The notes beneath the pieces are model-generated. The model had not been told where the DNA came from and did not search any database. It worked only from the letters and a program-made list of their open reading frames with translations. Shown in pieces: positions 16,068 to 47,533 of a DNA stretch of 64,000 nt. The stretch is from a virus. The stretch covers positions 64,001 through 128,000 of the IMG/VR virus record IMGVR_UViG_3300043411_001575; one strand, 5' to 3'. Position 1 is the first letter of the stretch. Each line of letters opens with the position of its first letter. A program made the position numbers and the translations under genes.

Positions 16068-16236
16068 TAGCACTATCGTAGCACTTGCAGGTAACAGACA
16101 AGGCTATATTCTCGTGCCGTTTTTCACGGCATGGAATTATAGCCGATGTTATGCAAGTGGGTTGGGTTGTGGGTGGCTCGTTTCAAAACTCTTTTTCTTA
16201 TTTTTTTAGGGAGGGATTTTTTATTTTCTTTTTTAC

Positions 16237-16266
16237 TTGCCAATTGACAATTTATGTTTATCTTTG
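16237..16266 (+). promoter_or_regulatory. Cassette-internal promoter with palindromic operator; copies at 19774, 24834, 29532, 30492, 39123, 46858
   Basis: TTGCCAATTGACAA followed by the -7 element TATCTTTG; perfect palindrome TTGCTAATTAGCAA at 39123-39136. Confidence 0.65.
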
Positions 16267-16308
16267 TAGCAGATAATTTAATACTAACAATTTAAAAACA
16301 AAAACAAA

Positions 16309-16524
16309 ATGAGCAAAATCACAGACTTTTGGGTGGTTACTAAACCAACGAAAAATTCAACATTGGCAGATATTCTGTTTAGTGCAGATATGAAACGAAT
16401 GGAATTGCAGTTCAAAGGAGGATTGACTGGAAAGGAAATTGTTGGAACATTTACCACAAAAGACCAAGCTACAAAGGTTGCTAAAATGGCACTTTTAAAA
16501 GCTGGTGCAAATGTAAAATTTTAA
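16309..16524 (+). CDS. Small cassette protein
   Basis: First ORF after the cassette promoter. Confidence 0.65.
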   Translation: MSKITDFWVVTKPTKNSTLADILFSADMKRMELQFKGGLTGKEIVGTFTTKDQATKVAKMALLKAGANVKF

Positions 16525-16542
16525 CATCTAAAACGAAACAAA

Positions 16543-16734
16543 ATGGGAATTTCAAAAACACTTGACCAAAGCAGAACCATTGTTTACGAAAACAAACTCG
16601 TTACTTGGGTTGATTGGGCATCTAAGGATGTTCACAAAGGAACAATTAAAATAAAAATACTCGGCAGGAAAACTTACATAACTGTTGATTACAACGACTT
16701 GAAAAATGTAAGTGTTACTAAAATTAAAAAATAA
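16543..16734 (+). CDS. Small cassette protein
   Basis: Operon-packed ORF. Confidence 0.6.
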   Translation: MGISKTLDQSRTIVYENKLVTWVDWASKDVHKGTIKIKILGRKTYITVDYNDLKNVSVTKIKK

Positions 16735-16739
16735 AAACT

Positions 16740-16907
16740 ATGGCAACTAAACCTAAAGCACCGTTTCAGGTAGGCGGTTACAAAGTAAAATGGTCTACAT
16801 CAAATAAAACTTGGCAGATTTGGAAAGGCAGTAAATTGATTGACGATTTTACAACTAAAGAAAGTGCAAGAACAAAAGCCGAAAGACTAACAAGAGGCTC
16901 TTACTAA
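16740..16907 (+). CDS. Small cassette protein (55 aa, not in ORF track)
   Basis: MATKPKAPFQVGGYKVKW...RGSY*. Confidence 0.6.
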   Translation: MATKPKAPFQVGGYKVKWSTSNKTWQIWKGSKLIDDFTTKESARTKAERLTRGSY

Positions 16908-16917
16908 AAACAAAACA

Positions 16918-17070
16918 ATGAAACTATCTGTAACAGAATATGCAAAACAGCTTGGTGTAACTCGTCAGGCTGTTTTGTTACAGATTAAAGAAAAAAGGCT
17001 ACCAAAAAATGTTATAGTTGAAAAAATTGGTAATACTTATCTCTTATCTGTGCGTGGGCAAAAAAAATAA
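16918..17070 (+). CDS. Small HTH regulator, family copy 1 of 7
   Basis: MKLSVTEYAKQLGVTRQAVLLQIKEKRLP. Confidence 0.8.
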   Translation: MKLSVTEYAKQLGVTRQAVLLQIKEKRLPKNVIVEKIGNTYLLSVRGQKK

Positions 17071-17161
17071 GAAAAAGAGTTTTGAAATGTTGCATAACGT
17101 TATCTCGCTTGGCGAGGTTTGGGGTTGAAACCCTATAATTTCTAATTTAAAACAAAATATA

Positions 17162-17998
17162 ATGAACACCGATATAAACGAAAATCCCAAATCTTGCCAA
17201 ACGAGTGTTATGGTTAGTGCGGATTTGATTAACAAAATTCATAATGAAAACTGCCTTGAAACAATGGCGAAAATGCCTGATAATTTTATTGATTTAACTG
17301 TTACCTCACCGCCTTATGATGGATTAAGAACGTACAACGGTTATAGTTTTGATTTTGAAAGTGTCGCAAAAGAATTATACCGAGTTACTAAAGAGGGTGG
17401 TGTTGTAGTGTGGGTTGTGGGCGATGCAACAGTAAAAGGCAGTGAAAGTTTAACATCATTTAAACAAGCTATTTATTTCAAAGATATTGGGTTTTCTGTA
17501 GAAACTATGATTTATGAAAAGGCGCAATCTTGCTTTGGTAGTAACACCTATTATTTGCAGGCGTTTGAATATATGTTTGTTTTAACTAAAGGCACTAAAC
17601 CAAAAGCAATTAATCATTTACGTGACCGCAGAAATGAGCGTAGTGGCGTTGAGAGTATGGGAAAAGGAGGCTTAAATAAAAACGGCACTAAAACAGACAG
17701 GCATAAAAAAGAAATGCTCGAATATGGTAAGCGAAAAAATATATGGAAATACGGAGTGGGTGGAGGCAAGACGGGACATCCTGCGGTATTTCCTGAACAG
17801 CTCGCAAACGACCATATAATTTCGTGGAGCAATGAAAACGATATTGTTTACGATTGCTTTAGCGGAAGCGGAACAACTGCTAAAATGAGTATAATTAATA
17901 GCAGGCGATGGATAGCGTCTGAAATGAGTGCTGAATATTGCGATATTATAAAAGAACGTATTAAAGTAGATAAAGGTCTTTTTGAAAACGTATCGTAG
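17162..17998 (+). CDS. DNA methyltransferase, beta class (SPPY, N4-cytosine-like)
   Basis: TSPPY, HPAVFP, YDCFSGSGTT. Confidence 0.9.
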   Translation: MNTDINENPKSCQTSVMVSADLINKIHNENCLETMAKMPDNFIDLTVTSPPYDGLRTYNGYSFDFESVAKELYRVTKEGGVVVWVVGDATVKGSESLTSFKQAIYFKDIGFSVETMIYEKAQSCFGSNTYYLQAFEYMFVLTKGTKPKAINHLRDRRNERSGVESMGKGGLNKNGTKTDRHKKEMLEYGKRKNIWKYGVGGGKTGHPAVFPEQLANDHIISWSNENDIVYDCFSGSGTTAKMSIINSRRWIASEMSAEYCDIIKERIKVDKGLFENVS

Positions 17999-18156
17999 CA
18001 TTAACCATAACGGATGGTGCTATGAGCAGGTTTGCCTTGTAGAAATGTTCAAGTTACCGAAAATGTTATTGGCAAACTTGCTTATAGCACGTGTTATACG
18101 CTGGCACGGTAAATTCAGCAGAAACTTAATTTGAAAAACTAAAAGAAAAAATAAAA

Positions 18157-18735
18157 ATGAGCAAAGGAGATTTTACAACATTAGGAGCATCAGCACACTC
18201 AAAAGAAGAGCGTGAAGAAAATGACTTTTATGCAACAGACCCAAAAGCATTAGAGATATTCCTTGAACAAACAGGGATTGAATTGCGAAACGTATGGGAA
18301 TGTGCTTGTGGAGAAGGGCATTTGGCAAAAGTATTAGATGCAAGAGGATTGCTTGGAAGAGCAAGTGATTTGATTGATAGAGGTTATGGAATAACGGAGA
18401 GTAATTTCTACTACTTTTCTGAAATATGGGAAGGAGATATATTAACAAATCCACCATACGGAGATGCTATGAAATTTTGCCAACACGCTCTTGATTGTGT
18501 GGATGAAGGAAGTAAAGTAGTGATGCTTATGCGTATTCAATTCTTAGAAGGGCAAAGACGTAAACCTTTTCTTTTGAAAAACCCGCCAAAGTATGTTTAT
18601 GTTAGCAGTAGCCGATTGTTACTCGCTAAAAACGCAGACTTTGTAAAGTACAACACACCTTCCGCTAATTGCTATGCGTGGTATGTTTGGGAAAAAGGAT
18701 TTAAAGGCGAAACTACTTTACGTTGGTTTAATTAA
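18157..18735 (+). CDS. Short phage-type N6-adenine DNA methyltransferase
   Basis: DFYAT, WECACGEG, TNPPY. Confidence 0.8.
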   Translation: MSKGDFTTLGASAHSKEEREENDFYATDPKALEIFLEQTGIELRNVWECACGEGHLAKVLDARGLLGRASDLIDRGYGITESNFYYFSEIWEGDILTNPPYGDAMKFCQHALDCVDEGSKVVMLMRIQFLEGQRRKPFLLKNPPKYVYVSSSRLLLAKNADFVKYNTPSANCYAWYVWEKGFKGETTLRWFN

Positions 18736-18877
18736 AAAGTGCGTGGGAAGATTTTTATTTTTTCTCTCACAAATGTTGAATCGAAGAACGAATGTAGTGC
18801 TTGCGTATAACGGCATCGGGCTTTGTGTCCGTTGGCGACTTAACCCACCAATGTTAAATTAAAAAACGAAACTTGAT

Positions 18878-19150
18878 ATGAGTACAAATGATGAATTGAA
18901 AAACGAAACCGCCAATGGCACAAAACCCGTGTTATCGGCTGGTTGGATTTCTGTAAAAGAGCAATTACCTGAATATTGGAGTCAACACCGAAATGATTAT
19001 GGAAGTGGTTACGTTCTTGGTTATACTAAATATGGTGAATGGGAAATAACTCAACTTTGGAATAATAAAGATTGGGAAGGTGATGATGACAATGAAGGTG
19101 ATTATATTACTCATTGGATGCCGTTGACCGTTCCACCAACTTGCCGATAA
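18878..19150 (+). CDS. DUF551-like phage protein
   Basis: WISVKEQLPE ... ITHWMPL. Confidence 0.7.
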   Translation: MSTNDELKNETANGTKPVLSAGWISVKEQLPEYWSQHRNDYGSGYVLGYTKYGEWEITQLWNNKDWEGDDDNEGDYITHWMPLTVPPTCR

Positions 19151-19222
19151 CGTATCGTGGCTTTGTTGTCGTTGTGGCTATTTAAGACCAAACTTAACAA
19201 ATAATAACTAAAAATTAAATTT

Positions 19223-19621
19223 ATGACTGAACTTTCAAAAAATGCCCAAGTGCCACAATGCGACAAAACCGCTGTTAGTGGCTGTGTTTTAGGATTACCT
19301 GAAATTGGAAAAACATATAATTGCTTTGATGATGGGAAAATAAGTAAAAGTAGAATGTATCAAGTTACAATAAGTGAAATAATCCCATTTGAAAAAGCCG
19401 ATAATGAATTGTTAGAATTATGGGAAGAAGAAGGATTACCGAGTTATTGGTTGTTTGAAAAAACAGATTATTTCATAAAATTTAAAAGTACAGAATTTAA
19501 AGACGAACCAAACGGAGTTTTTGCAAGAACTAAAAACGGTGGTTGGTTTGGTTTAGGGAACTATTGGAATAGTGGTAGATTAGATGTTGACGGCTCTTTA
19601 ACGCAAAGCTTGTCAACATAG
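19223..19621 (+). CDS. Cassette hypothetical protein
   Basis: Starts in the hairpin loop and fills unit 19274-19629. Confidence 0.65.
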   Translation: MTELSKNAQVPQCDKTAVSGCVLGLPEIGKTYNCFDDGKISKSRMYQVTISEIIPFEKADNELLELWEEEGLPSYWLFEKTDYFIKFKSTEFKDEPNGVFARTKNGGWFGLGNYWNSGRLDVDGSLTQSLST

Positions 19622-19850
19622 CCACTAACGGCATCCGTATAAGGGAAGTGCGAGGAACGAGCATTTACTTTATACGGTGTTAGCAAAGTGCGTTGGGCTG
19701 TGTGTTGGCTCGTTCCAAAACCATTTATTTTCTTTTTTTTGGGGAGGTTTTGAAAACTTTTTTACTAAAATACTTGCTAAATGACAATTTATATTTATCT
19801 TTGAACCATATTAACAATTAAAAAATAAAAACAATTAAAAAATAAAAACA

Positions 19851-20036
19851 ATGACAAAATTCGGAACAACAACTTGCCAATTTTACAACGGAACAGATTC
19901 AGTAACCGTAAATTCATCACTATTCAGAACCATTAGAGGTTGGGCTTCTACTGGTATTCCAAAAGATGCTATTAAAGGGGGAAGAAAGGTTTACGTTGCT
20001 AAAACAACTCTTGAACGCATTAAAAAAATTGCTTAA
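19851..20036 (+). CDS. Small cassette protein
   Basis: Lies between promoter and HTH gene. Confidence 0.6.
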   Translation: MTKFGTTTCQFYNGTDSVTVNSSLFRTIRGWASTGIPKDAIKGGRKVYVAKTTLERIKKIA

Positions 20037-20221
20037 TGAGAATTTCTGTAACTGATTATGCAAAACAGCTTGGTGTAACTCGTCAAGCTGTTTTGTTACA
20101 GATTAAAGAAAAAAGGTTGCCTAATAATGTTAAGTCTGAAAAAATTGGCAACACTTACTCTTTAACTGTGGGTGGGCAAAAAAAGAATAAAAATGCTTCC
20201 AATAAACTACAATCGAAGTAG
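20036..20221 (+). CDS. Small HTH regulator, copy 2
   Basis: SVTDYAKQLGVTRQAVLLQIKEKRLP. Confidence 0.8.
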   Translation: MRISVTDYAKQLGVTRQAVLLQIKEKRLPNNVKSEKIGNTYSLTVGGQKKNKNASNKLQSK

Positions 20222-20313
20222 TATCGTAGCAATGGGGCATAACGGTTTCGGGCTTGGCGAAGTGGCTGAACTCGAAGCTAAATAGGATTACTAAACTTTA
20301 AAATTAAAAACGA

Positions 20314-21135
20314 ATGTTAGATAGAATTACTGAACAGCCATTTTGCCAAACCCGTGTTATGTGCAGGGCGGTTGATAATCTTGAACTCCTTTTGTCGCAG
20401 CCTGATGAAAGTGTAGATTTGATTTATTGCGATATACTTTACGGAACAGGTAGAAATTTCAGTGAATATCAGGACTTGAAACCAATTAGAAGTGAGATTG
20501 AAAGCCACTACCTACCACGTTTTATCGAAATGAAACGAGTCTTAAAACAAAGCGGCACTATATACATTCATACGGGAGTAAACACTTCCCATTGGATTAG
20601 AAGTTTAATGGATGATGTTTTTGGGTATAATAATTTTCAAAATGAAATTATATGGTACTACAAAAATTCCGCATTGAAAGCTAAGTCAAATAAATTTAGG
20701 CAGAATACAGATACTATACTTTACTATGTAAAAGAAAAGGGTAAACATATTTGGAATGATGTTTACGAAAAGTGTAAACCTTATAAAAACTCAAAGCATA
20801 AATTTAATCCAATAACAAAAAAAGCTGAAAGGCAGAGAAATGAAAGTGGTAGAATTGAATACTTTATGGTAGATGAAAGGAAGTGCGATAACCTAATTCA
20901 GATAAATGCTTTAAATAGTAGTGAAAAGGTTGGTTACCCTACTCAAAAACCAAAGGAACTAATAAGCCGTTTTGTTTTAGCTTCTACGAATGAAGGGGAT
21001 GTAGTGGCTGATTATTATTTAGGTAGTGGCACAACCGCAGTAGTTTGTAAAGAACTAAACCGAAATTTTATAGGTTGCGACATTAATCCAAAGGCTATTG
21101 AAATAACAAATGCTCGTTTAGATGCAGTTTCGTAG
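20314..21135 (+). CDS. DNA methyltransferase, beta class, atypical DILY motif IV
   Basis: CDILY, NEIIWYY, YPTQKP, DYYLGSGTT. Confidence 0.85.
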   Translation: MLDRITEQPFCQTRVMCRAVDNLELLLSQPDESVDLIYCDILYGTGRNFSEYQDLKPIRSEIESHYLPRFIEMKRVLKQSGTIYIHTGVNTSHWIRSLMDDVFGYNNFQNEIIWYYKNSALKAKSNKFRQNTDTILYYVKEKGKHIWNDVYEKCKPYKNSKHKFNPITKKAERQRNESGRIEYFMVDERKCDNLIQINALNSSEKVGYPTQKPKELISRFVLASTNEGDVVADYYLGSGTTAVVCKELNRNFIGCDINPKAIEITNARLDAVS

Positions 21136-21412
21136 CCTTGCGCATAACGGTCGAGTATTGGCGAAGAAGCGGATTTATACCACCAAAGCCGATACGAAGC
21201 ACTACACTTGATTGACCTACAAATGTTCATACGAAGCACCGAAACCGCTTTTTTGCCAATACTTTGTTAGTGGCTGATGCGGATTTTTAGCACTCATTTT
21301 TAGTCAGTTAGAAAATATTTTGAAAATAGTTGAAAATAAATTTGGTTTGTATTGTTTTTGTATATACATTTGCATTACAATAATTAAGTAAAACAATTTA
21401 AAAACAAACAAA

Positions 21413-21820
21413 ATGGAAAAGCAAGTAAAAACAAACACATTGATAGCTGAATTTATGGGCTATGAAACTATCCCTTATAATGGAAACAAAAATGTTCCAA
21501 TTTATAATGGCAATAAGTATGCTAAAACAGTAGGTGAACAAAAAGCCTTATGGGGTGGATTAGATTTACAATTCACTGGAAGGTTTACGGAAAGAGTAAA
21601 CTACCCATTTGATACAGACTTTAATTATTTAATACCTGTTATTAAAAGAATAGAAGAGCAAGGGTATGTAGTAGCTATTAAAGGTATAAGCTACCAAGTT
21701 TATAAAGTTATGGATGAACAAAACCCTATTATAAGTTTAGTTTGTGGGGATTTATCTAAAAAAACAGAAATGACTTGTGATTTAGTTACATCGTTTATTG
21801 AACAACTTAATAATAACTAA
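21413..21820 (+). CDS. Cassette hypothetical phage protein
   Basis: NTLIAEFMG; promoter TACATTTG at 21365-21372. Confidence 0.65.
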   Translation: MEKQVKTNTLIAEFMGYETIPYNGNKNVPIYNGNKYAKTVGEQKALWGGLDLQFTGRFTERVNYPFDTDFNYLIPVIKRIEEQGYVVAIKGISYQVYKVMDEQNPIISLVCGDLSKKTEMTCDLVTSFIEQLNNN

Positions 21821-24677: not shown

Positions 24678-24903
24678 TATTGGTGCTAACGTTTACGGCT
24701 ATATTCTCGTGCCGTTTTTCACGGCATGGAATTATAGCCGATGTTATGCAAGTGCGTTGGCTTGTGGGTGGCACGTTTCAAAACTCTTTTTCTTATTTTT
24801 TTTAGAGAGGGATTTTTTTATTTTCTTTATTACTTGCTAATTGACAATTTATGTTTATCTTTGTAGCAGATAATTAATACTAACAATTTAAAATCAAAAC
24901 AAA

Positions 24904-25188
24904 ATGAGCAAAGCAGGATTAACAAAATTTTTAGCAAAGTTCCCAGATGACACTAAAAGCTGGGCTAAAGCAACAGATGAAGTTCGTGATATTGCACGAA
25001 CAGCAAAAGAATATTACAATGAAATAGAAGGCAAAGATATTCAACCTTGCGATTTCCGTTCAATGAAAACGCCTTCCGAATGGAACACAAAAGGTAAAAG
25101 CTACATTTTTAAAGTGTATGATAAAATGAGTGCAAAAACAAAAACAGAGTTTAACGGCTATTTGAAAAGCCACTTTAATATTAAATAA
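24904..25188 (+). CDS. Small cassette protein
   Basis: Lies between promoter and HTH gene. Confidence 0.65.
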   Translation: MSKAGLTKFLAKFPDDTKSWAKATDEVRDIARTAKEYYNEIEGKDIQPCDFRSMKTPSEWNTKGKSYIFKVYDKMSAKTKTEFNGYLKSHFNIK

Positions 25189-25189
25189 A

Positions 25190-25348
25190 ATGGAGCAACT
25201 ATCTGTAACCGATTATGCAAAATTGCTTGGCGTAACTCGTCAGGCGATTTTGTTACAGATTAAAGAAAAAAGGTTGCCGAAAAATGTTACAGCAAAAAAA
25301 ATCGGGAACACTTATCTACTATCTGTGCGTAGGCAAAAAAGAAAATAA
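25190..25348 (+). CDS. Small HTH regulator, copy 3
   Basis: MEQLSVTDYAKLLGVTRQAILLQIKEKRLP. Confidence 0.8.
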   Translation: MEQLSVTDYAKLLGVTRQAILLQIKEKRLPKNVTAKKIGNTYLLSVRRQKRK

Positions 25349-25474
25349 ATGGTTTTGGAATGTTTGCTAACGGTGTGGGCTATGAGAAGTAAAACCCCTT
25401 TTTGTGCGGTGGATTTTGTAAATTTGTAATTATTAACTAAAACCTTTCGGAGTATAGGAAACCGAAATAAAGTT

Positions 25475-25765: not shown

Positions 25766-25996
25766 AATCTTTTCACAGTTTTGAAAAAACTGAAAGAGTG
25801 CGTGGGCTTTTTCTTTTTTAATAATTTAATTGCCACTAACGTTGAAGGGCTTGGCGAAGGTGGGCTTGTAGGATGCTCAATTTTAGCAGAATGTTTCTGC
25901 CCACTTTTGCCAAACCCGTGTTATATGAAGTGCCGACTTATTTACGTTGAAGCCAAATTGGAACACTAAACAGAAAAACAAAAAGAAAAAAAAGGG

Positions 25997-26809: not shown

Positions 26810-27059
26810 AAGTGCGGTGGCTTTTTTCTTTTTGTTTTTCCTTCACGGAACTTCAATTGGAAACGGTCAGCAAGGCATTTCATATAACGACCGTGTGTTT
26901 ATGTCAGGTTTTGCTTTTCGCAAAACTTGCATTAAACACAATGTTAGCAAAGTGCGTTGGCTTGTGGGTGGCTCGTTGTATTTAATAAAAAAGAAAAAAA
27001 GGAAGGCGTGTGTTGGCTATTTTAATTTGTAAATTTGTATAAACATAAATCATATAAAA

Positions 27060-27896: not shown

Positions 27897-28063
27897 TTTT
27901 AAACCTTTTCACAATTTTGAAAAAATTGAAGGGAGCGTGGGCTTTTTCTTTTTTATTAAATACAATGTTTGCTAACGCATATCGGCTAAACGCAGTATTT
28001 AAAAACTTTTGCGAGGGAAATTCGTAAATTTGACAATTATAAACAATTAAAAAACAAAACAAA

Positions 28064-29249: not shown

Positions 29250-29602
29250 TTCTCTCATTAGTGCGGTGGGAAAGTTTTTAAATATTGAGTTTAGCCGTTG
29301 TTATGCGAAGGTGTGGCAACTGCAAAATTTCAAATTATAGACAAAACTTTCTTGCCACACTTTTGCATAACGTTTTGCAGCTAAACGCTGATTTTGTTCT
29401 TCACAAAATTTGCGATTTAGGTGCTGTTACCTGCTGATGCGGTTTCATAGTACAAATGCTGATTTGGAACATAAAACTAAGGGTTTAATTTTTTTCTTTT
29501 TTTTAGTGGAGGAAAACTTTTTCTTTTTTACTTGCTAATTGACAATTTATGTTTATCTTTGTAGCATATAATTTAACAATAACAATTTAAAACAAAAACA
29601 AA

Positions 29603-29896
29603 ATGGCTGACATCGCATTACCAAAATCAAACCTTTACCTTGAAGGTAGCGGACTTGACACAAACGGAAACAAAGTTGTAAAACTTGGAATTTCAAGTTT
29701 ACCGAAAAACTTTAGTATTCAAACTAATGGCAATTTGCCGAAAACTGGAAGTATCCTTCGTGGCTTGAAAACCAAAAAGGATATGGAAAGCGTGAGTAAA
29801 TCCGATTTGCAAATAATTTCAAAAGAAGTTGTTGCATACATTAAGGAGTTTGGCTCAAAACTGCAAAGAGAAAAATTAAGAACTTACAACTCTTAA
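29603..29896 (+). CDS. Small cassette protein
   Basis: Lies between promoter and HTH gene. Confidence 0.65.
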   Translation: MADIALPKSNLYLEGSGLDTNGNKVVKLGISSLPKNFSIQTNGNLPKTGSILRGLKTKKDMESVSKSDLQIISKEVVAYIKEFGSKLQREKLRTYNS

Positions 29897-29898
29897 TT

Positions 29899-30063
29899 AT
29901 GGAGCAACTATCTGTAACCGATTATGCAAAATTGCTTGGTGTAACTCGCCAAGCAATTTTGTTACAGATAAAAGAAAAAAGGTTGCCGAAAAATGTTACA
30001 GTTAAAAAAATTGGTAATACTTACTCCTTATCTGTGCGTGGGCAAAAAAAAGAAAAAAAATAA
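29899..30063 (+). CDS. Small HTH regulator, copy 4
   Basis: MEQLSVTDYAKLLGVTRQAILLQIKEKRLP. Confidence 0.8.
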   Translation: MEQLSVTDYAKLLGVTRQAILLQIKEKRLPKNVTVKKIGNTYSLSVRGQKKEKK

Positions 30064-30277
30064 ACCCGACTTCTACCACAAATGTTCATTCGGAGCAACA
30101 AAGTAGCATTTGCAGGTAACGGACGAGGCTATGAGCAGTTGAGCGTAGCCTGTGCGATGGAAAGAATTGCTTATAGCCTGTGTTATGCAAGTGCGTTGGC
30201 TTGTGGGTGGCTCGTTTCAAAACTCTTTTTCTTATTTTTTAGGGAGGGATTTTTATTTTCTTTTTTAACAACAAAAA

Positions 30278-30484
30278 ATGGCTGATTCAATCGGTGGCTT
30301 AGAAGGCACAAAAACTAAATTTTTCATAGATGTAAAAGTTCCTATCAGAGCAGGGATGGAGTTTGGCACAAAGAATTATAAAATAAGAACAATCGGATAT
30401 GAGGTTTTTCGACAATACTTTGATACTAAAGAAAAGGATATGCAAGTAGGTAGGCAAAGAATTGAAAGAAAAATAAATAACTAA
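30278..30484 (+). CDS. Small cassette protein
   Basis: ORF in unit 30182-30918. Confidence 0.5.
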   Translation: MADSIGGLEGTKTKFFIDVKVPIRAGMEFGTKNYKIRTIGYEVFRQYFDTKEKDMQVGRQRIERKINN

Positions 30485-30562
30485 CTTTTACTTGCTAATT
30501 GACAAATTATGTTTATCTTTGTAGCAGATAATTTAATATTAACAATTTAAAAACAAAACAAA

Positions 30563-30733
30563 ATGGCAAAAAGTAGTTATTACAAGTACGCAGTTGTAGC
30601 GGTAAACACAAAAACAGGTGAAGAAAGTTTAGTATGCAAAGTTCGTGCTGCTGGGGACTTAAACAACATTTTACACGGATTAGAAAAAGCAGTAGGAAGC
30701 TCTCCTATTAAATACAAATCTAAAAAACTGTAA
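30563..30733 (+). CDS. Small cassette protein (56 aa, not in ORF track)
   Basis: MAKSSYYKYAVV...KSKKL* after the promoter. Confidence 0.6.
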   Translation: MAKSSYYKYAVVAVNTKTGEESLVCKVRAAGDLNNILHGLEKAVGSSPIKYKSKKL

Positions 30734-30735
30734 AA

Positions 30736-30957
30736 ATGGAACTATCTGTAACAGAATATGCAAAATCGCTTGGCGTAACTCGTCAGGCGATTTTGTTACA
30801 GATTAAGGAAAAAAGGTTGCCTAAAAATGTTACGGTTAAAAAAATTGGTAATACTTATTCTTTATCTGTGCGAGGGCAAAAAAAAAATAAGAAAAAGAGT
30901 TTTGAAATGTTGCATAACGTTATCAGGCTTGGCGAAGTGCCGCTACTCGAAACTTAA
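30736..30957 (+). CDS. Small HTH regulator, copy 5 (reads through into the next hairpin)
   Basis: MELSVTEYAKSLGVTRQAILLQIKEKRLP. Confidence 0.75.
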   Translation: MELSVTEYAKSLGVTRQAILLQIKEKRLPKNVTVKKIGNTYSLSVRGQKKNKKKSFEMLHNVIRLGEVPLLET

Positions 30958-32840: not shown

Positions 32841-33079
32841 TCGAAGCACTTCACCCCTATTGGCTATAACGGTGGCGATTGGCGAAGTAAAAGCATTTCA
32901 CTGCTGCTGATGGTTATCACTATGCTCAATGGCTTTTATTTTGCCAATTGCGTGTTAGCTGCTGTTTTTTTTCTCTTTGATTGTCAGTACTTTAGAAAAT
33001 AATTTAAAAATATCTTTGAAAATGTTTGCAGATTCAAAATAATGTTGTATCTTTGTTCTACAATTAAAAACAAAATAAA

Positions 33080-33277
33080 ATGACAAATTTGAATGAAATA
33101 GAAGTAACAGTAAAGGGTAACGATAGTATCACAGGTAGCGAAAGTTGGGTATCTAATTTAGAAAACTTAAAAAGTTGGGAACTCACAAATGATGAGATAA
33201 ACGAAATAATAGAGGGCAAAACAGTTAAATGTATATCTCCAAATGGTAGAAGAATTATATGGATAACAAAAAAGTAA
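33080..33277 (+). CDS. Small cassette protein
   Basis: Follows a TATCTTTG promoter element. Confidence 0.6.
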   Translation: MTNLNEIEVTVKGNDSITGSESWVSNLENLKSWELTNDEINEIIEGKTVKCISPNGRRIIWITKK

Positions 33278-33423
33278 AAAGAGGTGGTAAACGCAAAAAT
33301 GCTGGTGCTAAACCTAAATACTCGGAGCTAACTAAAACGGTTGCCTTTCGCTGTCCATTGTCAAAGGTTGATGAACTGAAAATAGTTGTCAAGTCTAAAC
33401 TTTCGGAGTGGTCGGTAAAATAG
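33259..33423 (+). CDS. RGG-motif / ribbon-helix-helix-like regulator (54 aa, not in ORF track)
   Basis: RGGKRKNAGAKPKY..TKTVAFRCP. Confidence 0.6.
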   Translation: MDNKKVKRGGKRKNAGAKPKYSELTKTVAFRCPLSKVDELKIVVKSKLSEWSVK

Positions 33424-34602: not shown

Positions 34603-35004
34603 ATGGAAACAATTGAAAAAAAAATATTAGGATTCACAGAAGAAATAACAGTTTGTGATTGCTGTGGTAAGGCTGATTTAAAAGGAACTTACGCTATTGA
34701 TTGGGAAGGTACAATTGCATATTACGGAAGCGTTTGTGCTTTTAAAGTGCATGGTGCTACTATTGAAGAGCAAAAGGAAGTGAAGAAAGCATACACTAAA
34801 AGAATGAAAGCGACTGAAAAATTAGCACAAATGGAAGCTGAATACAATGGAACACAATATGCTTTAGTAAAAATGTTTCGTTTTGTTGAAGAGAAGAAAT
34901 TGGATGTAATGGCTTTCATTAATAAATACGGAAAAAAATGTGATGAGAACGATTATTACATTGCTTACGAAATTGGACACGTTGTAAAATGTATAGACAA
35001 ATGA
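34603..35004 (+). CDS. Cassette hypothetical protein with Cys motifs
   Basis: CDCCGK..YGSVCA; own promoter. Confidence 0.65.
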   Translation: METIEKKILGFTEEITVCDCCGKADLKGTYAIDWEGTIAYYGSVCAFKVHGATIEEQKEVKKAYTKRMKATEKLAQMEAEYNGTQYALVKMFRFVEEKKLDVMAFINKYGKKCDENDYYIAYEIGHVVKCIDK

Positions 35005-35297
35005 AAGAATGTACAATGTGCGCTTTAAAAGAGCCTGAATTTAAAAAGTGCATTTTTAGCGATTGCCCTAATGGTGTAAATTTTGTAACCTGCGATTGTG
35101 GAGAGAAAATTTACAACACGGATGGCAAAAAAGCGAAGTGCAAAAAATGCAAACCACATGGAGGTAAAAGGCTAAATGCAGGACGAAAAAGCCAATACAA
35201 AGAAGAAACGCAAACAATTTCTTTCCGTGTACCAAAATCACTAATTGAACCGATTACAAAATACGTCAAACGTGCGCTGGCAAAAAGTAAAAAATAA
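35001..35297 (+). CDS. Zn-finger + GG-motif/RHH-like regulator
   Basis: CxxC pairs; HGGKRLNAGRK..TISFRVP. Confidence 0.6.
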   Translation: MKECTMCALKEPEFKKCIFSDCPNGVNFVTCDCGEKIYNTDGKKAKCKKCKPHGGKRLNAGRKSQYKEETQTISFRVPKSLIEPITKYVKRALAKSKK

Positions 35298-37737: not shown

Positions 37738-37949
37738 CAGCAAAAATGGAGCAGGGCAATATAAAAGCCCTGTTCCCCAACTTAGGAATGGAAGTAATTA
37801 CAAATGGCTGTGTTTGCCAAATTATTCAAATCTCATCTCAACAAATCAAAGTCGAAATAACCGAAGCAATAAACCCGATGTATAAAGTTGGAAATCAAAT
37901 TTGGGTTGATAGCTTTTTAATACCATCCGATGAAAAAGAAAAAAACTAA
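37728..37949 (+). CDS. Small cassette protein
   Basis: Operon-packed ORF. Confidence 0.6.
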   Translation: MDVTAKMEQGNIKALFPNLGMEVITNGCVCQIIQISSQQIKVEITEAINPMYKVGNQIWVDSFLIPSDEKEKN

Positions 37950-38097
37950 TAGAGGTGGAGTTCGGGATGGGGCTGGTAGAAAAAAAGCAGACTACGAAAC
38001 AAAAACTATTTCCTTTCGTGTTCGTCTTGAATTTGTAGAACCGATTAAAAAGATGGTCAAGGATTATGTTTCGGAGCGTCTTAAAGGTGACGCATAA
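37930..38097 (+). CDS. RGG-motif/RHH-like regulator (55 aa, not in ORF track)
   Basis: RGGVRDGAGRKK..TKTISFRVR. Confidence 0.65.
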   Translation: MKKKKTNRGGVRDGAGRKKADYETKTISFRVRLEFVEPIKKMVKDYVSERLKGDA

Positions 38098-38939: not shown

Positions 38940-39188
38940 CGTTTTGCGTATATGAGAAGTGGCACTTGCACAAACTTGAAATTTAGCACAAATGTTTCTG
39001 TGCCATTTCTTATATACGCTGTTATGCCCTCGTTGCGGTAATTTTAGAACTAACTTCAATCGAAGCACTAAGGCATTTTTATTCTTTTTGTGGGAGGGTT
39101 GAAAACTTTTTTAAAATAACACTTGCTAATTAGCAAAATATAGTTACTTTTGTAACGCAATAATGCAGAAAACTAAAATTTAAAAACA

Positions 39189-39419
39189 ATGTCAAAAGCA
39201 GTTTATCAATTATTATTTGCTAATCAATCTGCCGATTCAAAGGTGCGATATGAATTAGTTAGAGAAACAAAAATGTATGTTTTTTTAAGAGAAATCACAA
39301 AAGAACCTCAATACATTTTTAGAGTTCACAAAAAAACATTAAGCGTTAAGGGTATCAAGGAAGGTAAAAATGGTTATCAATTTGACGTGGCTGACGCAAG
39401 AATTTTAAAAAAAGTATAA
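39189..39419 (+). CDS. Small cassette protein
   Basis: Lies between promoter and HTH gene. Confidence 0.65.
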   Translation: MSKAVYQLLFANQSADSKVRYELVRETKMYVFLREITKEPQYIFRVHKKTLSVKGIKEGKNGYQFDVADARILKKV

Positions 39420-39421
39420 CT

Positions 39422-39607
39422 ATGCGACTATCTGTAACAGAATACGCAAAACAGCTTGGTGTAACTCGTCAAGCTGTTTTGTTACAGATTAAAGAAAAAA
39501 GGTTGCCTAATAATGTTAAGTCTGAAAAAATTGGCAACACTTACTCTTTAACTGTGGGTGGGCAAAAAAAGAATAAAAATGCTTCCAATAAACTACAATC
39601 GAAGTAG
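39422..39607 (+). CDS. Small HTH regulator, copy 6
   Basis: MRLSVTEYAKQLGVTRQAVLLQIKEKRLP. Confidence 0.8.
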   Translation: MRLSVTEYAKQLGVTRQAVLLQIKEKRLPNNVKSEKIGNTYSLTVGGQKKNKNASNKLQSK

Positions 39608-39738
39608 TATCGTAGCAATGGGGCATAACGGTTGAGTGTATGAGTAGTGTGGCTTTGTACATACTCTCGACTTACAGATAAATTTATTTAGCCACATTAC
39701 TTATACACTTTGTTATAGGTATGTAAAATTTACGGATT

Positions 39739-40217: not shown

Positions 40218-40463
40218 ATGAGAACATTGATTTTAGAAGCAAACGTAATTGAAACTAAAAACAGTTACACAATAGACACTACTATTGAAAAAGAATGGGG
40301 AATGAAAAAACCTATAATGAAAAAAATTCTTTACGGGATAGAAATTCAAAAGCCAACTGCATATAGAATTTATAATCATGGAAACGGTTCTTCAAGAACT
40401 TGGGTGTTTGGTGATTTGGAAATAAACCCAGATAGTAGAAGTGTTAAAAAATTGGCAAAGTGA
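40218..40463 (+). CDS. Small cassette protein
   Basis: Same promoter scaffold as unit 37442. Confidence 0.65.
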   Translation: MRTLILEANVIETKNSYTIDTTIEKEWGMKKPIMKKILYGIEIQKPTAYRIYNHGNGSSRTWVFGDLEINPDSRSVKKLAK

Positions 40464-42424: not shown

Positions 42425-42485
42425 CGTTTTGCAGATAGGCGTTGTTGCCTCACAAATGATTGATTGAAACACTAAATTTAATAAT

Positions 42486-42827
42486 ATGGGAAATGATAAT
42501 TTAAAAACGGAAAGCAATAACGCCAATGTGCTGTTAGGTGCTGGGTTTGTTTACTTGGTAGAATGTTCATCAGGAAGTTGGGATAGTTACCATTGGTGGG
42601 TTGGAGGAATATTTGAAAAGCAAGAAGATGCTGATAAATATGCACAAAGCTTGAATGATGAAAACAAACGATTAAAAGAGGTTGAATGCTCAATAAAAAC
42701 ACCATTTGAAGATATGACTGATGAAGAAGAAACGGAGTATTACAGGTGGTGGAATGGTAACAATGATGCTATGGAATGGAATGGTGCTAAAGTTAAGCAG
42801 TACCCCATAAACAAACCTTGCACCTAA
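42486..42827 (+). CDS. Cassette hypothetical protein
   Basis: Starts in the hairpin; stop codon is in the TAAC core. Confidence 0.65.
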   Translation: MGNDNLKTESNNANVLLGAGFVYLVECSSGSWDSYHWWVGGIFEKQEDADKYAQSLNDENKRLKEVECSIKTPFEDMTDEEETEYYRWWNGNNDAMEWNGAKVKQYPINKPCT

Positions 42828-42975
42828 CGATTGGGTGTATGAGAAGGTTTGCTTAGATGAACTTTTAAATTTACACAGAATTTTATAGCAAACTTTCTTA
42901 TACACCTTGTTATGTACAGGCACGGTAAATTACCGATGAACTTAATTAAATGAACGAAACTAATAATTTTTAAAA

Positions 42976-43716
42976 ATGTGGGATGGCAAATATGCTTTTG
43001 AAAAAAGCAAAATAATACAAGGAGATAGTTTGGATAAAATAAAATATATACCTAATGGCAGTATTGACTTAATTGTAACTGACCCACCGTATAAAATGAC
43101 GAAACAAGGTAATTCTTGCAGACCAAATTATATGAAAAGTGGAATGGGTGAAAACTTATTTGATGGTGAATTACCAAATACAAAAGAATGGATGAAACTT
43201 TGTTTTGATAAACTAAAAGACGATGCCCATTTCTATGTATTTACCAATATAAATAGTTTGCACGAATACCTTGATGTTGCAAAAGAATGTGGATTTAAAC
43301 TACATAATATTATAAGTATGATTAAAGATACCAAAATGCCTAATAGATGGTATTTAAAATACACTGAATTTGTATTGTTTTTTAGAAAAGGTAAAGCGTT
43401 TCCAATAAACGATATGACAAGTAGAGATTATGAATTTGTTGAAACACCAACATTAAAAAATGGCAAAATACATATATCACAAAAACCATTGAATTTTATT
43501 GAAAAACTAATAACAAATTCATCAAATGAAGGTGAAATATGTTTGGATTTATTTAGTGGAAGCGGAACACTTGCAGAAGCCTGTATAAATACAAATAGAG
43601 ATTTCATTATTATAGAGAAAAACCCAAATGACTTTGAAAAAGGCAAAGAAAGGGTGGGAAAAATTTTTAAAAATTATGGAATTAACATACAACCTTTAAT
43701 CGAAGCACAAATGTAG
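42976..43716 (+). CDS. DNA methyltransferase, beta class (DPPY)
   Basis: TDPPY, HISQKP, LDLFSGSGT. Confidence 0.9.
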   Translation: MWDGKYAFEKSKIIQGDSLDKIKYIPNGSIDLIVTDPPYKMTKQGNSCRPNYMKSGMGENLFDGELPNTKEWMKLCFDKLKDDAHFYVFTNINSLHEYLDVAKECGFKLHNIISMIKDTKMPNRWYLKYTEFVLFFRKGKAFPINDMTSRDYEFVETPTLKNGKIHISQKPLNFIEKLITNSSNEGEICLDLFSGSGTLAEACINTNRDFIIIEKNPNDFEKGKERVGKIFKNYGINIQPLIEAQM

Positions 43717-43910
43717 TGCTTGTACATAACGTTTTCGGGCTTGGCGAAGGTGGGCTTGTAGGATGCTCAATTTTAGCACAATGTGTCTGCCCACTTTTGC
43801 CAAACCCGTGTTATATGAAGTGCCGACTTATTAAGCAGAATTTTAAATTGAAACTATAAACAGAAAAACAAAAAAGAAAAAAAGCGTAGGGAATTTTAAA
43901 AACAAACAAT

Positions 43911-44177
43911 ATGGAAAAGAATTTTATTGAAAAAGCAGAAAAAGAAATTGGTAGAAAATTTGGTTTTTTCATCAGATGTGATGATAAAAACAAACCAACA
44001 GAAGTATTAACCGATATGTACTTTGAACTATGGGAAACAGAAAAGATGAACGAGATTTTATCTTTATGCGAAACACATAATCTTAAATACGATTTTGGTT
44101 TAGAAAGTTTTGATACCAAAATAGATGCTATTGAACAAGAAATATGTATTGTTTCAACTAATTGCGAAAATTCATAA
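43911..44177 (+). CDS. Cassette hypothetical protein
   Basis: Operon with the downstream MTase. Confidence 0.6.
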   Translation: MEKNFIEKAEKEIGRKFGFFIRCDDKNKPTEVLTDMYFELWETEKMNEILSLCETHNLKYDFGLESFDTKIDAIEQEICIVSTNCENS

Positions 44178-44178
44178 A

Positions 44179-44922
44179 ATGGAAGCAAATACGATTTACA
44201 AAGGCGATTGCTTTGAACTTATAAAGCAAATAACAAAAGCAGATAACGTCAAACTTATTATTACAGACCCACCATATTTACATAATAAAGGAGGTGGGAA
44301 AACATCGGGAACAGAGGGTAAAAGTTCAATAGCTAATAGCCCTATGTATAAATTCGATTCATTTATGATGGAAGATATGAGTTCTTTTTTAGAGGAAGAT
44401 GTTTATAATCTATTAGATGAATATAAAAGAATAATGACAAAATTAAACTGCTTTATATTTACTAATGACACTTTGATACCGTATTATACAATGTGGGCAG
44501 TTAAAAACAATAAAAAGTTTACAATTTTAACTTGGGAAAAACCATTGTCGATTTTAAACAGAAATAGATTTAGTCAGAATTTAGAATATGTTGTGAGGAT
44601 TTACGACAATGGAACTGCACTTAATTTAATAGATTTAGAAGCATATCCCGAAAAGAAAAACTACTACTCAAAAAACAGAAGGTTAAATTCGCCTACAAAT
44701 AAGATACACCCAACCCAAAAACCATTAGAATATCTACTTGGATTGATTGAGTTAAATACAAATGAAGGCGATTTAGTATTAGATACGTTTTTTGGTAGTG
44801 GACAAACAGGTAAGGCTTGTCAGATTTTAAATAGAAATTATATCGGTTTTGAAAGAGAAGAAAAGTATGTTGAATTATCAAATAAATATTTACAACAAGG
44901 ATTTGAAAAAACACTATTTTAA
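44179..44922 (+). CDS. DNA methyltransferase, beta class (DPPY)
   Basis: TDPPY, HPTQKP, LDTFFGSG. Confidence 0.9.
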   Translation: MEANTIYKGDCFELIKQITKADNVKLIITDPPYLHNKGGGKTSGTEGKSSIANSPMYKFDSFMMEDMSSFLEEDVYNLLDEYKRIMTKLNCFIFTNDTLIPYYTMWAVKNNKKFTILTWEKPLSILNRNRFSQNLEYVVRIYDNGTALNLIDLEAYPEKKNYYSKNRRLNSPTNKIHPTQKPLEYLLGLIELNTNEGDLVLDTFFGSGQTGKACQILNRNYIGFEREEKYVELSNKYLQQGFEKTLF

Positions 44923-45071
44923 AAGTGTGGTGGCTTTTTTCTTTTTGTTTTTCATTAACGGAACTTCAATTGGAAACGGTCAGCAAGGCATTTCATATAA
45001 CGTTCGAGGGCTTGGCGAAGTGGCTGAACCTGAAGCTAAATAGAATTACTAAACTTAAAAATTAAGAACGA

Positions 45072-45881
45072 ATGATTGATATAATTACTGAACAGCCATT
45101 TTGCCAAACCCGTGTTAGTGGCAGTACTTTTGTGAATGCTGATTGCTTTGATGTTTTTCCTTTTATCGAGGATAAATCAATTGATGCTATTATTTGCGAT
45201 TTGCCCTATGGAACAACTCAATGTAAATGGGATAGCATTATTAATTTAGATTTGATGTGGACGCAATACAACAGAATAATAAAAGATAACGGCATTTTTA
45301 TATTATTTGCAGATGAGCCTTTTACAAGCATATTAATAAATAGTAACATTAAAAATTTTAAGCAAAGAATAACTTGGGATAAACAAATAGCAGGAGGTCA
45401 TTTAAACGCTAAAAAAATGCTATTGAAAAGAACTGAGGATATATGCTTATTTTCAAATGTTAAAAATGGAAAATATACATACAATCCTATTTTAAAAGAT
45501 AAGGATTTTAAAAACATAAGAGATAGAAACGGAGAAAACAGAAAAGAGTTTAAAGGCGGTTATGTAGGGAAACACAATAGTACGTTGAGTAAAGAGCATA
45601 ACAATAAAAAAAGTTACCCAGATAATTTAATTTCCTTTTCAGCAAGAAAAGGCGATTGTAACCCTATAAATAGATTACACCCAACACAAAAACCACTTGA
45701 ATTGATGGAATATCTTATAAAAACCTATACTAATGAGGGCGATTTGGTTTTAGATAACACAATGGGTTCTGGAACAACAATTTTAGCTGCTATAAAAAAT
45801 AATAGAATTGGTATAGGAATTGAAAAGGAAAAACAATATTATGATGTCGCTGTTCGTAGGGCTTCGGAGTATTGCCACTAA
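45072..45881 (+). CDS. DNA methyltransferase, beta class
   Basis: CDLPY, HPTQKP, LDNTMGSGTT. Confidence 0.9.
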   Translation: MIDIITEQPFCQTRVSGSTFVNADCFDVFPFIEDKSIDAIICDLPYGTTQCKWDSIINLDLMWTQYNRIIKDNGIFILFADEPFTSILINSNIKNFKQRITWDKQIAGGHLNAKKMLLKRTEDICLFSNVKNGKYTYNPILKDKDFKNIRDRNGENRKEFKGGYVGKHNSTLSKEHNNKKSYPDNLISFSARKGDCNPINRLHPTQKPLELMEYLIKTYTNEGDLVLDNTMGSGTTILAAIKNNRIGIGIEKEKQYYDVAVRRASEYCH

Positions 45882-45952
45882 CGTTATCGGGCTTGGCGAA
45901 GTGGCTGAACCCGAAGCTAAATAGAATTACTAAACTTAAAAATTAAAAACGA

Positions 45953-46711
45953 ATGTCAAATAGAATTACAGAACAGCCATTTTGCCAAACCAGTGTTAGT
46001 GGCAGTACTTTTGTAAATGCTGATTGCTTTGATGTTTTTCCTTTTATTGAGGACAAATCAATTGATGCTATTATTTGCGATTTGCCTTATGGAACTACTG
46101 CTTGTAAGTGGGATACAATTATACCATTTGAGCCGCTATGGGAGCAGTACAAGCGAGTGATTAAACCTAATGGTGCGATAGTGCTGTTTAGCAAAGAGCC
46201 ATTTACGTGCATATTGAGAACAAGTGAAATTAAAATTTTTAAGCAACCTCTTATTTGGGATAAGGTTAATTCAGATAACCCTATGCAGGCAAAAAGAAGA
46301 CATCTAAACACTACGGAGGATATTTCTATCTTTTACAAATCTCAATGTACTTATAACCCACAAGGTCTTATAAAGTCAAATATAAAAAAGGGAGGGAAGC
46401 AAGGGATAATGATTGATAGTAGTGGTAAGGAAAAAGAACAATATATTCAAGAGAATACCAATTATCCGAAAAATATATTAGTGTACCCGATAGAAAGAAA
46501 GGCGGTTCATCCAACTCAAAAACCCGAAGCACTCCTGCAATACTTAGTCAAAACCTACACTAACGAAGGCGATATAGTCTTAGATAACTGTATGGGTTCA
46601 GGTACAACAAATCTTGCTTGTTTAAAATTAAATCGCAAATCAATTGGAATAGAAAAGGAAAAACAATATTACGATGTCGCTGTTCGTAGGGCTTCTGAGT
46701 ATTGCCACTAA
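45953..46711 (+). CDS. DNA methyltransferase, beta class
   Basis: CDLPY, HPTQKP, LDNCMGSGTT. Confidence 0.9.
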   Translation: MSNRITEQPFCQTSVSGSTFVNADCFDVFPFIEDKSIDAIICDLPYGTTACKWDTIIPFEPLWEQYKRVIKPNGAIVLFSKEPFTCILRTSEIKIFKQPLIWDKVNSDNPMQAKRRHLNTTEDISIFYKSQCTYNPQGLIKSNIKKGGKQGIMIDSSGKEKEQYIQENTNYPKNILVYPIERKAVHPTQKPEALLQYLVKTYTNEGDIVLDNCMGSGTTNLACLKLNRKSIGIEKEKQYYDVAVRRASEYCH

Positions 46712-46918
46712 CGGTATCCGTATAAGGGAAGTGCGAGGAACGAGCATTTACTTTATACGGTGTTAGCAAAGTGCGTTGGGATTGTGTGTCGGCTCGTTCC
46801 AAAACCATTTATTTTCTTTTTTTTGGGGAGGTTTTGAAAACTTTTTTACTAAAATACTTGCTAAATGACAATTTATATTTATCTTTGAACCATATTAATA
46901 ATCTAAAAACAAAACAAA

Positions 46919-47230
46919 ATGATTTACAAAAAAACACACTATGATAAAAAGGCTTTAAACAGCCACGTTTCAAAAATAAAAGATGCAGGAGGAAATGCAA
47001 TAGTAGATGGATTATCGGTTAGATATTTCTATCCATCCAATACCATTGGTGAAATTAGATTAAAGCATAAGAGTTGGAAGAAAACAGAAAGACAAGAAGT
47101 TTTGTTTATTGTTTTAGTTTCTGAAAAAGATAAAACGCCATACTATTCAGCAATGTATTTCCCGAAATGGGTTGAAATAGGAGGTGTTTATGGAAACAAA
47201 AATGACATAACAATAATCGAAAAGTTTTAA
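46919..47230 (+). CDS. Small cassette protein
   Basis: Lies between promoter and HTH gene. Confidence 0.65.
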   Translation: MIYKKTHYDKKALNSHVSKIKDAGGNAIVDGLSVRYFYPSNTIGEIRLKHKSWKKTERQEVLFIVLVSEKDKTPYYSAMYFPKWVEIGGVYGNKNDITIIEKF

Positions 47231-47232
47231 CT

Positions 47233-47388
47233 ATGAAACTGTCTGTAACAGAATATGCAAAACAGCTTGGCGTAACTCGTCAAGCCGTTTTGTTACAAAT
47301 TAAAGAAAAAAGGTTGCCTAAAAATGTGAAGGTTGAAAAAATCGGAAATACTTATTCTTTAACTGTGGGTGGGCAAAAAAGAAAATAA
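47233..47388 (+). CDS. Small HTH regulator, copy 7
   Basis: MKLSVTEYAKQLGVTRQAVLLQIKEKRLP. Confidence 0.8.
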   Translation: MKLSVTEYAKQLGVTRQAVLLQIKEKRLPKNVKVEKIGNTYSLTVGGQKRK

Positions 47389-47533
47389 ATGGTTTTGGAA
47401 TGTTTGCTAACGTATGGTGCTATGAGCAGGTTTGCCTTGCAGAAATGTTCAAATTTAGCACTAATGTTATTGGCAAACTTGCTTATAGCACGTGTTAGCG
47501 GTAGTTTATTTTTCAAAAATTAAAATTAAAAAT

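Follow-up and report, generated by a model that had tools for sequence, protein, structure and literature searches.

The stretch of DNA analysed here (the window, 64,000 nucleotides, nt) comprises bases 64001-128000 of a single 169,658-bp contig, IMG/VR record IMGVR_UViG_3300043411_001575, and has a G+C content of 32%. Its source is a 170-kb phage with a Bacteroidota-type host; phage-like features encoded in it include RtcB, an HNH endonuclease and a tail fibre, and among its methyltransferase genes some share 88% DNA identity with counterparts in Flavobacterium phages. Every gene between ~13.3 and 51.7 kb lies on the + strand, and this region (13254-51702, +) is an array in which attC-like imperfect palindromes, each with the conserved outer boxes (..TAAC, hairpin, GTTA..), stand between the cassettes. 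The array holds at least 20 DNA methyltransferase genes (16 N6_N4_Mtase paralogues, 1 of the D12 class, 2 Dam genes of PF05869 and 1 MT-A70), and a tyrosine recombinase gene (51703-52572, +; PF00589, E = 1.8e-43) stands at its downstream end on the same strand as the cassettes. Among IntI-type features only the presence of PF00589 is established for this recombinase, and the cassettes face it, unlike those of classical integrons. The subject of this report is a set of seven cassettes in the array, each of which brings its own promoter with a 14-bp palindrome, one to three small open reading frames (ORFs; the cargo) and, as last gene, a copy of a small predicted winged-helix protein (the regulator). 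We propose that these units are mobile, autoregulated expression cassettes with the logic of anti-CRISPR (acr) operons and their anti-CRISPR-associated (Aca) regulators.

Each unit spans the distance from one GTTA box to the next TAAC box of the attC-like sites, and all seven lie on the + strand. Unit 1 (16148-17098) begins at the GTTA box of the attC-like site before it and ends with its own TAAC box; its promoter (16237-16266) consists of the palindrome at 16237-16250, which contains the -33 TTG, a spacer and the -7 box TATCTTTG at 16259-16266, and is followed by three cargo ORFs (16309-16524, 16543-16734 and 16740-16907; 71, 63 and 55 amino acids, aa) and a regulator gene for the winged-helix protein (16918-17070; 50 aa). 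A 27-nt perfect inverted repeat belongs to the same unit, with its left arm at 16181-16207 and its right arm at 17061-17087, where it overlaps the regulator stop. Unit 2 (19679-20243) has its palindrome at 19774-19787, its -7 box at 19796-19803 and a 61-aa cargo ORF at 19851-20036, and its regulator gene (20036-20221, 61 aa) starts within the cargo stop (ATGA). In unit 3 (24743-25371) the palindrome (24834-24847) and -7 box (24856-24863) precede a 94-aa cargo ORF (24904-25188) and a 52-aa regulator (25190-25348), and in unit 4 (29426-30120) the corresponding elements are at 29532-29545, 29554-29561, 29603-29896 (97 aa) and 29899-30063 (54 aa). Unit 5 (30182-30918) carries an extra 68-aa ORF upstream of its promoter (30278-30484), the palindrome at 30492-30505, the -7 box at 30514-30521, a 56-aa cargo ORF at 30563-30733 and a regulator of 73 aa (30736-30957) in which the usual stop is absent and the frame continues into the attC-like site. 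The palindrome of unit 6 (39021-39629) is perfect (TTGCTAATTAGCAA, 39123-39136) and is followed by the -7 box (39145-39152), a 76-aa cargo ORF (39189-39419) and a 61-aa regulator (39422-39607), with a 17-nt exact inverted repeat at 39073-39089 and 39566-39582. Unit 7 (46762-47411) contains a palindrome at 46858-46871, a -7 box at 46880-46887, a 103-aa cargo ORF at 46919-47230 and the 51-aa regulator copy that was used for the structure model (47233-47388), and has a 26-nt perfect inverted repeat at 46797-46822 and 47375-47400.

An A-rich leader of 35-60 nt separates the -7 box from the first small ORF, as expected for Bacteroidota messages without a Shine-Dalgarno sequence (PMC6847099). The regulator gene begins 1-10 nt after the cargo stop or overlaps it, and the units are therefore operons. 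A sequence-only reading of this DNA had described seven units with the palindrome upstream of a -7 TAnnTTTG, one to three unrelated small ORFs of 55-103 aa and a near-identical last gene, and each of these statements held: palindrome and -7 box were found at all seven coordinates, three small ORFs are present in unit 1 and one in each of the others within the size range given, the small ORFs of the seven units have no similarity to one another, and the seven regulator proteins are 76-90% identical. The unit starts given in that reading turned out to be the GTTA boxes of the preceding attC-like sites, and its final position, 47411, is the TAAC box that closes the last unit.

The palindrome pattern TTGCYAAWTRRCAA has seven exact + strand sites in the window (16237, 19774, 24834, 29532, 30492, 39123 and 46858). 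When both strands were searched with up to one mismatch, 12 matches were obtained against 1.84 expected, a count that none of 100 shuffled sequences reached, and a looser pattern applied to the whole 169,658-bp genome returned the same seven sites and no further promoter-like one. The promoter at each site reads TTG-N19-TATCTTTG, with TACTTTTG as the -7 box at 39123, and the -33 TTG lies within the 14-bp palindrome. TAnnTTTG is the -7 consensus of the main Flavobacteria sigma factor (PMC9723704), and TTG-N19-TAnnTTTG is the -33/-7 arrangement of a Bacteroidota sigma-A-type promoter. Across 29 distinct modules, palindrome positions 1-14 carry 0.7-2.6 bits per base (more than 1.3 bits at eleven of them), the spacer positions immediately behind the palindrome (15-21) carry 0.35-0.7 bits, and the information content is high again in the -7 box. 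Since a promoter alone needs just the TTG, we count the extra conservation of the palindrome as evidence that a protein reads it. A second near-palindrome just past the -7 box (GCAATATTGC type) is present in some modules only and shows no clear covariation.

The same module was found elsewhere. For comparison 35 related loci were fetched, and ~30 of them share one order: a T-run with AGGGAGGG, ~25 nt, the palindrome with its -33 TTG, the -7 box, the A-rich leader, one to three small ORFs and the regulator gene last. The cargo ORFs across these ~30 loci fall into ~25 unrelated families, and three of the nine cargo ORFs of the window recur among the fetched loci. A guilt-by-association search with the regulator, which the sequence-only reading had recommended, recovered 164 homologues and a module kept in ~30 loci with ~25 unrelated cargo families. 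The homologues come from freshwater, groundwater, sediment and wastewater metagenomes, and the 120 that were listed are 65-96% identical. IMG/VR yielded one related contig only and no match to the exact promoter pattern, and no match to the module was found in phage and plasmid collections. In the IMG/VR relative (locus L008; 3485-3682 on the - strand and 4888-5091) the regulator operon has another promoter, with a divergent HTH_17-like gene upstream, and the last gene of the next operon is a small Arc-like gene. Positions 1-1103 of locus L011 hold tandem units in which the regulator is truncated (..KIGNT stop) by the palindrome of the next promoter, which looks like the product of recombination at a common AATACTT.

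The regulator copies are under purifying selection. Among the seven copies, the pairwise ratio of nonsynonymous to synonymous substitution (dN/dS) is 0.04-0.32 at dS values of 0.1-0.7, so that the copies are old and kept as proteins rather than recent duplications. In a profile search at 50% clustering, 169 representatives were obtained, the remote ones of which reach Pfam HTH_17, while the window copies themselves fall below the gathering score of that family (15 bits vs 27). In an AF2 model (pLDDT 85) a first strand is followed by two helices and then by two more strands, and the top five structural matches in VIA were BldC (6amk, Z = 6.0), mycobacteriophage Pukovnik Xis (4j2n, 5.7), TraN (5.5), RdfS (8dgl, 5.4) and P2 Cox (4lhf, 5.3). 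These matches span 46-48 residues, with root-mean-square deviations of 2.4-3.1 for 6amk, 4j2n, 8dgl and 4lhf. Although the Z values are only modest, the five matches share a single winged-helix type, as small proteins or as domains: four are DNA-binding-only proteins and the fifth, TraN, is a larger DNA-binding protein. The regulator is thus predicted to be a winged helix of the Xis/Cox/BldC type. No Aca entry was among the best 50 structural matches listed for the model, and a PDB sequence search returned non-significant matches only (GcrA, E = 0.5). In its predicted fold the regulator is unlike known Aca proteins: the solved ones are all-alpha helix-turn-helix (HTH) dimers (PMC12658196), and Aca14 is a ribbon-helix-helix protein (PMC13551039).

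Regulator and palindrome change together. In 27 modules the first residue of the predicted recognition helix is Gln, and all 27 have TTGC in the left half-site; where this residue is Ser, the left half-site is TTGT (L019, L028, L030 and L031), and in L019 the change is symmetric (TTGTTAATTAACAA), with both halves matched. A tree built without the Gln/Ser codon has at least two switches, in both strongly supported clades, and the operator follows the residue in each; that is, palindrome base 4 tracks the Gln/Ser switch in two separate clades. The extra conservation of the palindrome, the restriction of the site to these promoters and the Gln/Ser covariation are three lines of sequence evidence from which we infer that the regulator reads the palindrome, and at the level of sequence the autorepressor logic of the units appears well supported.

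Evidence that a unit moves as a whole came from two related loci. L021 and L022 are identical over ~4.4 kb, through a unit and up to TTGCATAAC, and are unrelated beyond it: past the breakpoint L022 continues into a recombinase gene 43% identical to that of the window and L021 into a D12 methyltransferase cassette. Hence the unit is moved in its entirety, and the breakpoint falls at the TAAC box. Perfect 26-27-nt inverted repeats flank units 1 and 7 and the unit of L022. The terminal inverted repeats are of three sequence types, and the two arms of each type match each other, which argues that they pair; the simplest form of such pairing would be an extended stem that encloses the recombination site of an excised circle. 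Two of the units are chimeric: the left end of unit 2 resembles that of unit 7 and its right end that of unit 6, and the left end of unit 3 resembles that of unit 1 and its right end that of unit 7. These mixed arms indicate that units have recombined with each other through their common promoter and regulator sequences.

Our favoured explanation, which we hold with moderate confidence, is that the units are self-contained, mobile and autoregulated expression cassettes of a phage integron-like array, in which the small winged-helix protein binds the palindrome, the control follows acr-aca logic and the cargo probably acts early in anti-defence or host takeover. Two symmetric copies of the regulator would sit on the 14-bp palindrome, the outer TTGC and GCAA of which are ~10 bp apart, and by occupying the palindrome over the -33 element they would shut the promoter. 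Upon phage entry, with the repressor absent, the seven promoters would fire and give a burst of cargo, and the regulator would then accumulate and exert negative feedback on cargo expression. Because both the proteins and the operators are nearly interchangeable, each regulator copy could act at all seven promoters. Transcription from the unit promoters would probably also continue into the promoterless cassettes downstream, many of them methyltransferase cassettes. As all cassettes face the recombinase, a promoter on the recombinase side cannot drive them, and terminator-like sites are not enriched (9 vs 10.8 expected); these two points together suggest that the unit promoters feed the cassettes behind.

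Candidate functions for the cargo itself were sought with less return. None of the nine cargo ORFs had a Pfam or PHROGs match that reached the threshold (a dedicated Acr library was not searched), and an Atlas search with the cargo gave chance-level leads only. The 97-aa ORF of unit 4 (29603-29896) has 33 homologues at 45-95% identity, and its AF2 model is confident (pLDDT 93, pTM 0.84), but fold searches with it produced no match (PDB Foldseek, E >= 0.07; VIA, Z <= 3.5; BFVD, E >= 0.046). This lack of a family or fold match fits the usual picture of counter-defence proteins and proves nothing. Orphan methyltransferases are classic anti-restriction genes, and the location of the units in an island of at least 20 methyltransferase genes is the sole positive argument for reading the cargo as probable early-acting anti-defence or host-takeover proteins.

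By layout the units are acr-aca-like. The units and acr-aca operons both have a strong promoter with an inverted repeat, unrelated small genes and a conserved small DNA-binding gene last, and in both the regulator is kept while the cargo is exchanged. Aca proteins have been reported to regulate several operons, and methyltransferases have been reported inside acr-aca operons (PMC13551039). The units differ in that the regulator is, by model, a 50-residue winged helix with three strands, in that no known acr gene was recognised in them with Pfam and PHROGs, and in that the whole operon is an attC-bounded cassette, seven copies of which are present in this one genome. The broader claims of the sequence-only reading stand in part. 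The acr-aca-like architecture is present and recurs in relatives, but that reading made no mention that the units are mobile cassettes within an integron-like array; its proposal of the small ORFs as strong candidates for new anti-CRISPR or anti-defence proteins is favoured by the methyltransferase setting only; and the last gene, which it put forward as a new Aca-like marker, has the position of an aca gene but encodes, by model, an Xis/BldC-type winged helix and is apparently not a relative of known Aca proteins.

Three other known systems resemble the units in part. P2 Cox, BldC, D29 Gp36 and RdfS share the fold and size of the regulator (VIA Z = 5.3-6.0) and, like it, consist of a DNA-binding domain only; P2 Cox is a known repressor of phage promoters. 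Mycobacteriophage D29 Gp36 represses phage promoters (PMC12266134). Proteins of this excisionase type assemble head to tail on direct repeats (PMC5859096, PMC12266134). The site conserved in the units is, by contrast, a palindrome, and the sequence similarity of the regulator lies below the Pfam HTH_17 threshold. Promoter-bearing integron cassettes, for example those with toxin-antitoxin genes, are likewise bounded by attC-like sites and import a promoter into a mostly promoterless array, but the units combine variable cargo with a constant regulator instead of a cognate pair, face the recombinase without a Pc-type promoter on the recombinase side, and reside in a phage replicon. Finally, the C proteins of restriction-modification systems are small autoregulating DNA-binding proteins with a palindromic operator that time DNA-modification genes after cell entry, a scheme to which the putative autoregulation of the units would correspond. 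C proteins, though, are dimeric, belong to the XRE helix-turn-helix type and have a restriction gene under their control, whereas no restriction endonuclease was found here and methyltransferases behind the units are no commoner than chance predicts.

Beside the seven units, the array contains a second promoter class at 33026, 34553, 37529 and 40158 (+), with the pattern TTGCAGWT..CAAAATA..TATMTTTG. Three of the four promoters lead variable ORFs and a common last small basic gene (GGKR.GAGR ... T[IV][AS]FR) at 33259-33423, 34989-35297 and 37930-38097 (+); the fourth (40158) precedes an ORF at 40218-40463 and lacks the small basic gene. The small basic genes look ribbon-helix-helix-like by eye, a fold left unconfirmed by Pfam and PDB sequence searches, which returned nothing. 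The three cassettes with this gene fit the same promoter and last-gene logic as the seven units.

Several observations weigh against the explanation we favour. No cargo ORF matches an anti-defence family known to Pfam or PHROGs, and methyltransferase cassettes stand directly behind three of the seven units, when roughly 40% of cassettes are of this kind, which is about what chance would give. The covariation consists of two independent switches only, Gln-type operators tolerate TTGT in the right half-site, and L008, which is of the Ser type, has an operon with another promoter and no palindrome. The second promoter class also starts TTGC..CAAA, and part of the palindrome conservation may thus belong to the promoter itself. 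Xis/BldC-type proteins, moreover, usually bind direct repeats head to tail and not palindromes (PMC5859096, PMC12266134).

One alternative is that the units are ordinary early-promoter modules, in which the palindrome is a promoter element recognised by RNA polymerase or some other factor, the small protein has a different regulatory target and the cargo consists of miscellaneous phage accessory genes without an anti-defence role. Many phages scatter repeated early promoters before small genes of unknown function, the TTGC..CAAA shared with the second promoter class agrees with a palindrome that is in part a promoter element, and no cargo ORF resembles a known anti-defence protein in Pfam, PHROGs or Atlas. 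Against it, the palindrome changes symmetrically in L019, its change tracks a recognition-helix residue in two clades, every operon closes with its regulator gene, and the units lie within an island of methyltransferase genes. We regard this alternative as a whole as unlikely, although it is the strongest competitor, and the part of it that concerns the cargo as possible.

The predicted fold, which matches excisionases best, raises a second alternative, that the winged-helix protein chiefly serves the array recombinase as a directionality or architectural factor, as Xis, Cox and RdfS serve their recombinases, and controls the excision or insertion of its own cassette, with promoter binding secondary. 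In L022 alone the gene lies directly upstream of a recombinase homologue, in a xis-int-like arrangement, and cassette-specific terminal inverted repeats adjoin the attC-like boxes. The operator half-site TTGCTAA also forms the outer boxes TTGCTAAC (25364, 27969 and 47404) and GTTAGCAA (19679, 26943 and 46762) of some attC-like sites, among them the sites at the borders of units 2, 3 and 7. On the other side, the gene is present in only 7 of ~50 cassettes, and its nearest copy in the window is 4.3 kb from the recombinase gene; its best-conserved partner is its own promoter palindrome; in L008 it has no attC-like site beside it; and no direct-repeat array was seen. We consider such a role improbable. 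Equally improbable is a dual role, in which the Xis-like protein would close its own promoter and also read TTGCTAA in the TTGCTAAC and GTTAGCAA boxes of the attC-like sites around its cassette, so that expression would be linked to excision or capture. On this reading the units would be self-regulating and self-mobilising vehicles by which new counter-defence genes pass from one phage array to another, and the regulator would be a usable marker in the search for unknown anti-defence genes of Bacteroidota phages.

The inverted repeats admit a further reading, in which the units are invertible promoter switches and the 26-27-nt perfect repeats are recombinase sites that flip the promoter segment. 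Invertible promoters are common in Bacteroidota, and in units 1 and 7, as in L022, a promoter segment of 550-850 bp does lie between perfect repeats, with less perfect ones at units 2 and 6. In all related loci looked at, however, the orientation of the module is that of its neighbours; the arms are A/T runs without an obvious core site and are mismatched in units 2 and 3; and, since they abut attC-like boxes, they are better explained as the extended stem of an excised circle. We judge this reading very improbable. Least probable of all, and rejected here, is that the units are toxin-antitoxin cassettes with a stabilising effect on the array, like those of chromosomal integrons, with the small ORF as toxin and the DNA-binding protein as antitoxin: the units are indeed promoter-bearing two-gene cassettes in a long array, and antitoxins of the HigA and MqsA types are likewise encoded behind their toxin and recognise palindromic sites, but a nearly invariant 50-residue domain with ~25 unrelated partners, three of them at once in unit 1, makes no cognate co-varying pair, and the bare DNA-binding domain of the model would leave no room for a toxin-binding part.

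Should the regulator be an autorepressor of the Aca kind, as the favoured explanation holds, it would provide a conserved handle for guilt-by-association searches. To our knowledge, phages that infect Flavobacteria and other Bacteroidota have yielded few counter-defence genes. It is in Bacteroidota phages that the handle would be useful, with ~25 unrelated small gene families already found behind one promoter-regulator scaffold and at least one cargo family that folds confidently, in the model, into a shape without a solved relative. If the explanation is true, a long array that faces away from a recombinase-side promoter would be expressed by way of mobile cassettes that import a regulated promoter.

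The remaining cassettes of the array have features of their own. Ordinary cassettes end in GTGCGKKGG followed by a T-run (for example at 18736-18770, 25780-25830, 26810-26840 and 27900-27950) and start with a matching A-run right before the start codon, so that each has its own short terminal inverted repeat, of a polarity opposite to that of the regulator units. Several long methyltransferase ORFs start within the preceding attC-like site (17162-17220, 20314-20365 and other gene starts); these ORFs read the right arm of the site as a common CQT(S/R)V peptide, with an ATG inside the GTTATG box. TTGCTAA, the sequence common to the operator half-site and the outer boxes of some attC-like sites, is present 16 times on the + strand of the array, where 4.2 copies are expected. 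Short stretches at attC-like sites (16022-16115 and 29365-29429) match the uncultured huge phages LR745206 (634 kb) and LR756502 (642 kb) at 92-95% identity. The methyltransferases, which belong to four Pfam families and extend from 13818 to 51643 (38 kb), are unusually dense for one phage. A PAPS-reductase-like gene (48121-48957; PF01507, E = 5e-06) sits as a cassette among them and may represent another DNA-modification function, and Pfam searches with 19 other array ORFs identified DUF551 alone. Outside the array, the window carries a permuted tmRNA gene at 716-1002 (-) with the tag peptide GEVKLAA (ARAGORN; Rfam RF04321, 51.9 bits vs a gathering score of 47), and a gene at 3252-4307 encodes a 351-aa protein with HTH_17 and sigma-70 region 4 that also weakly matches the C-terminal domain of RNA polymerase alpha.

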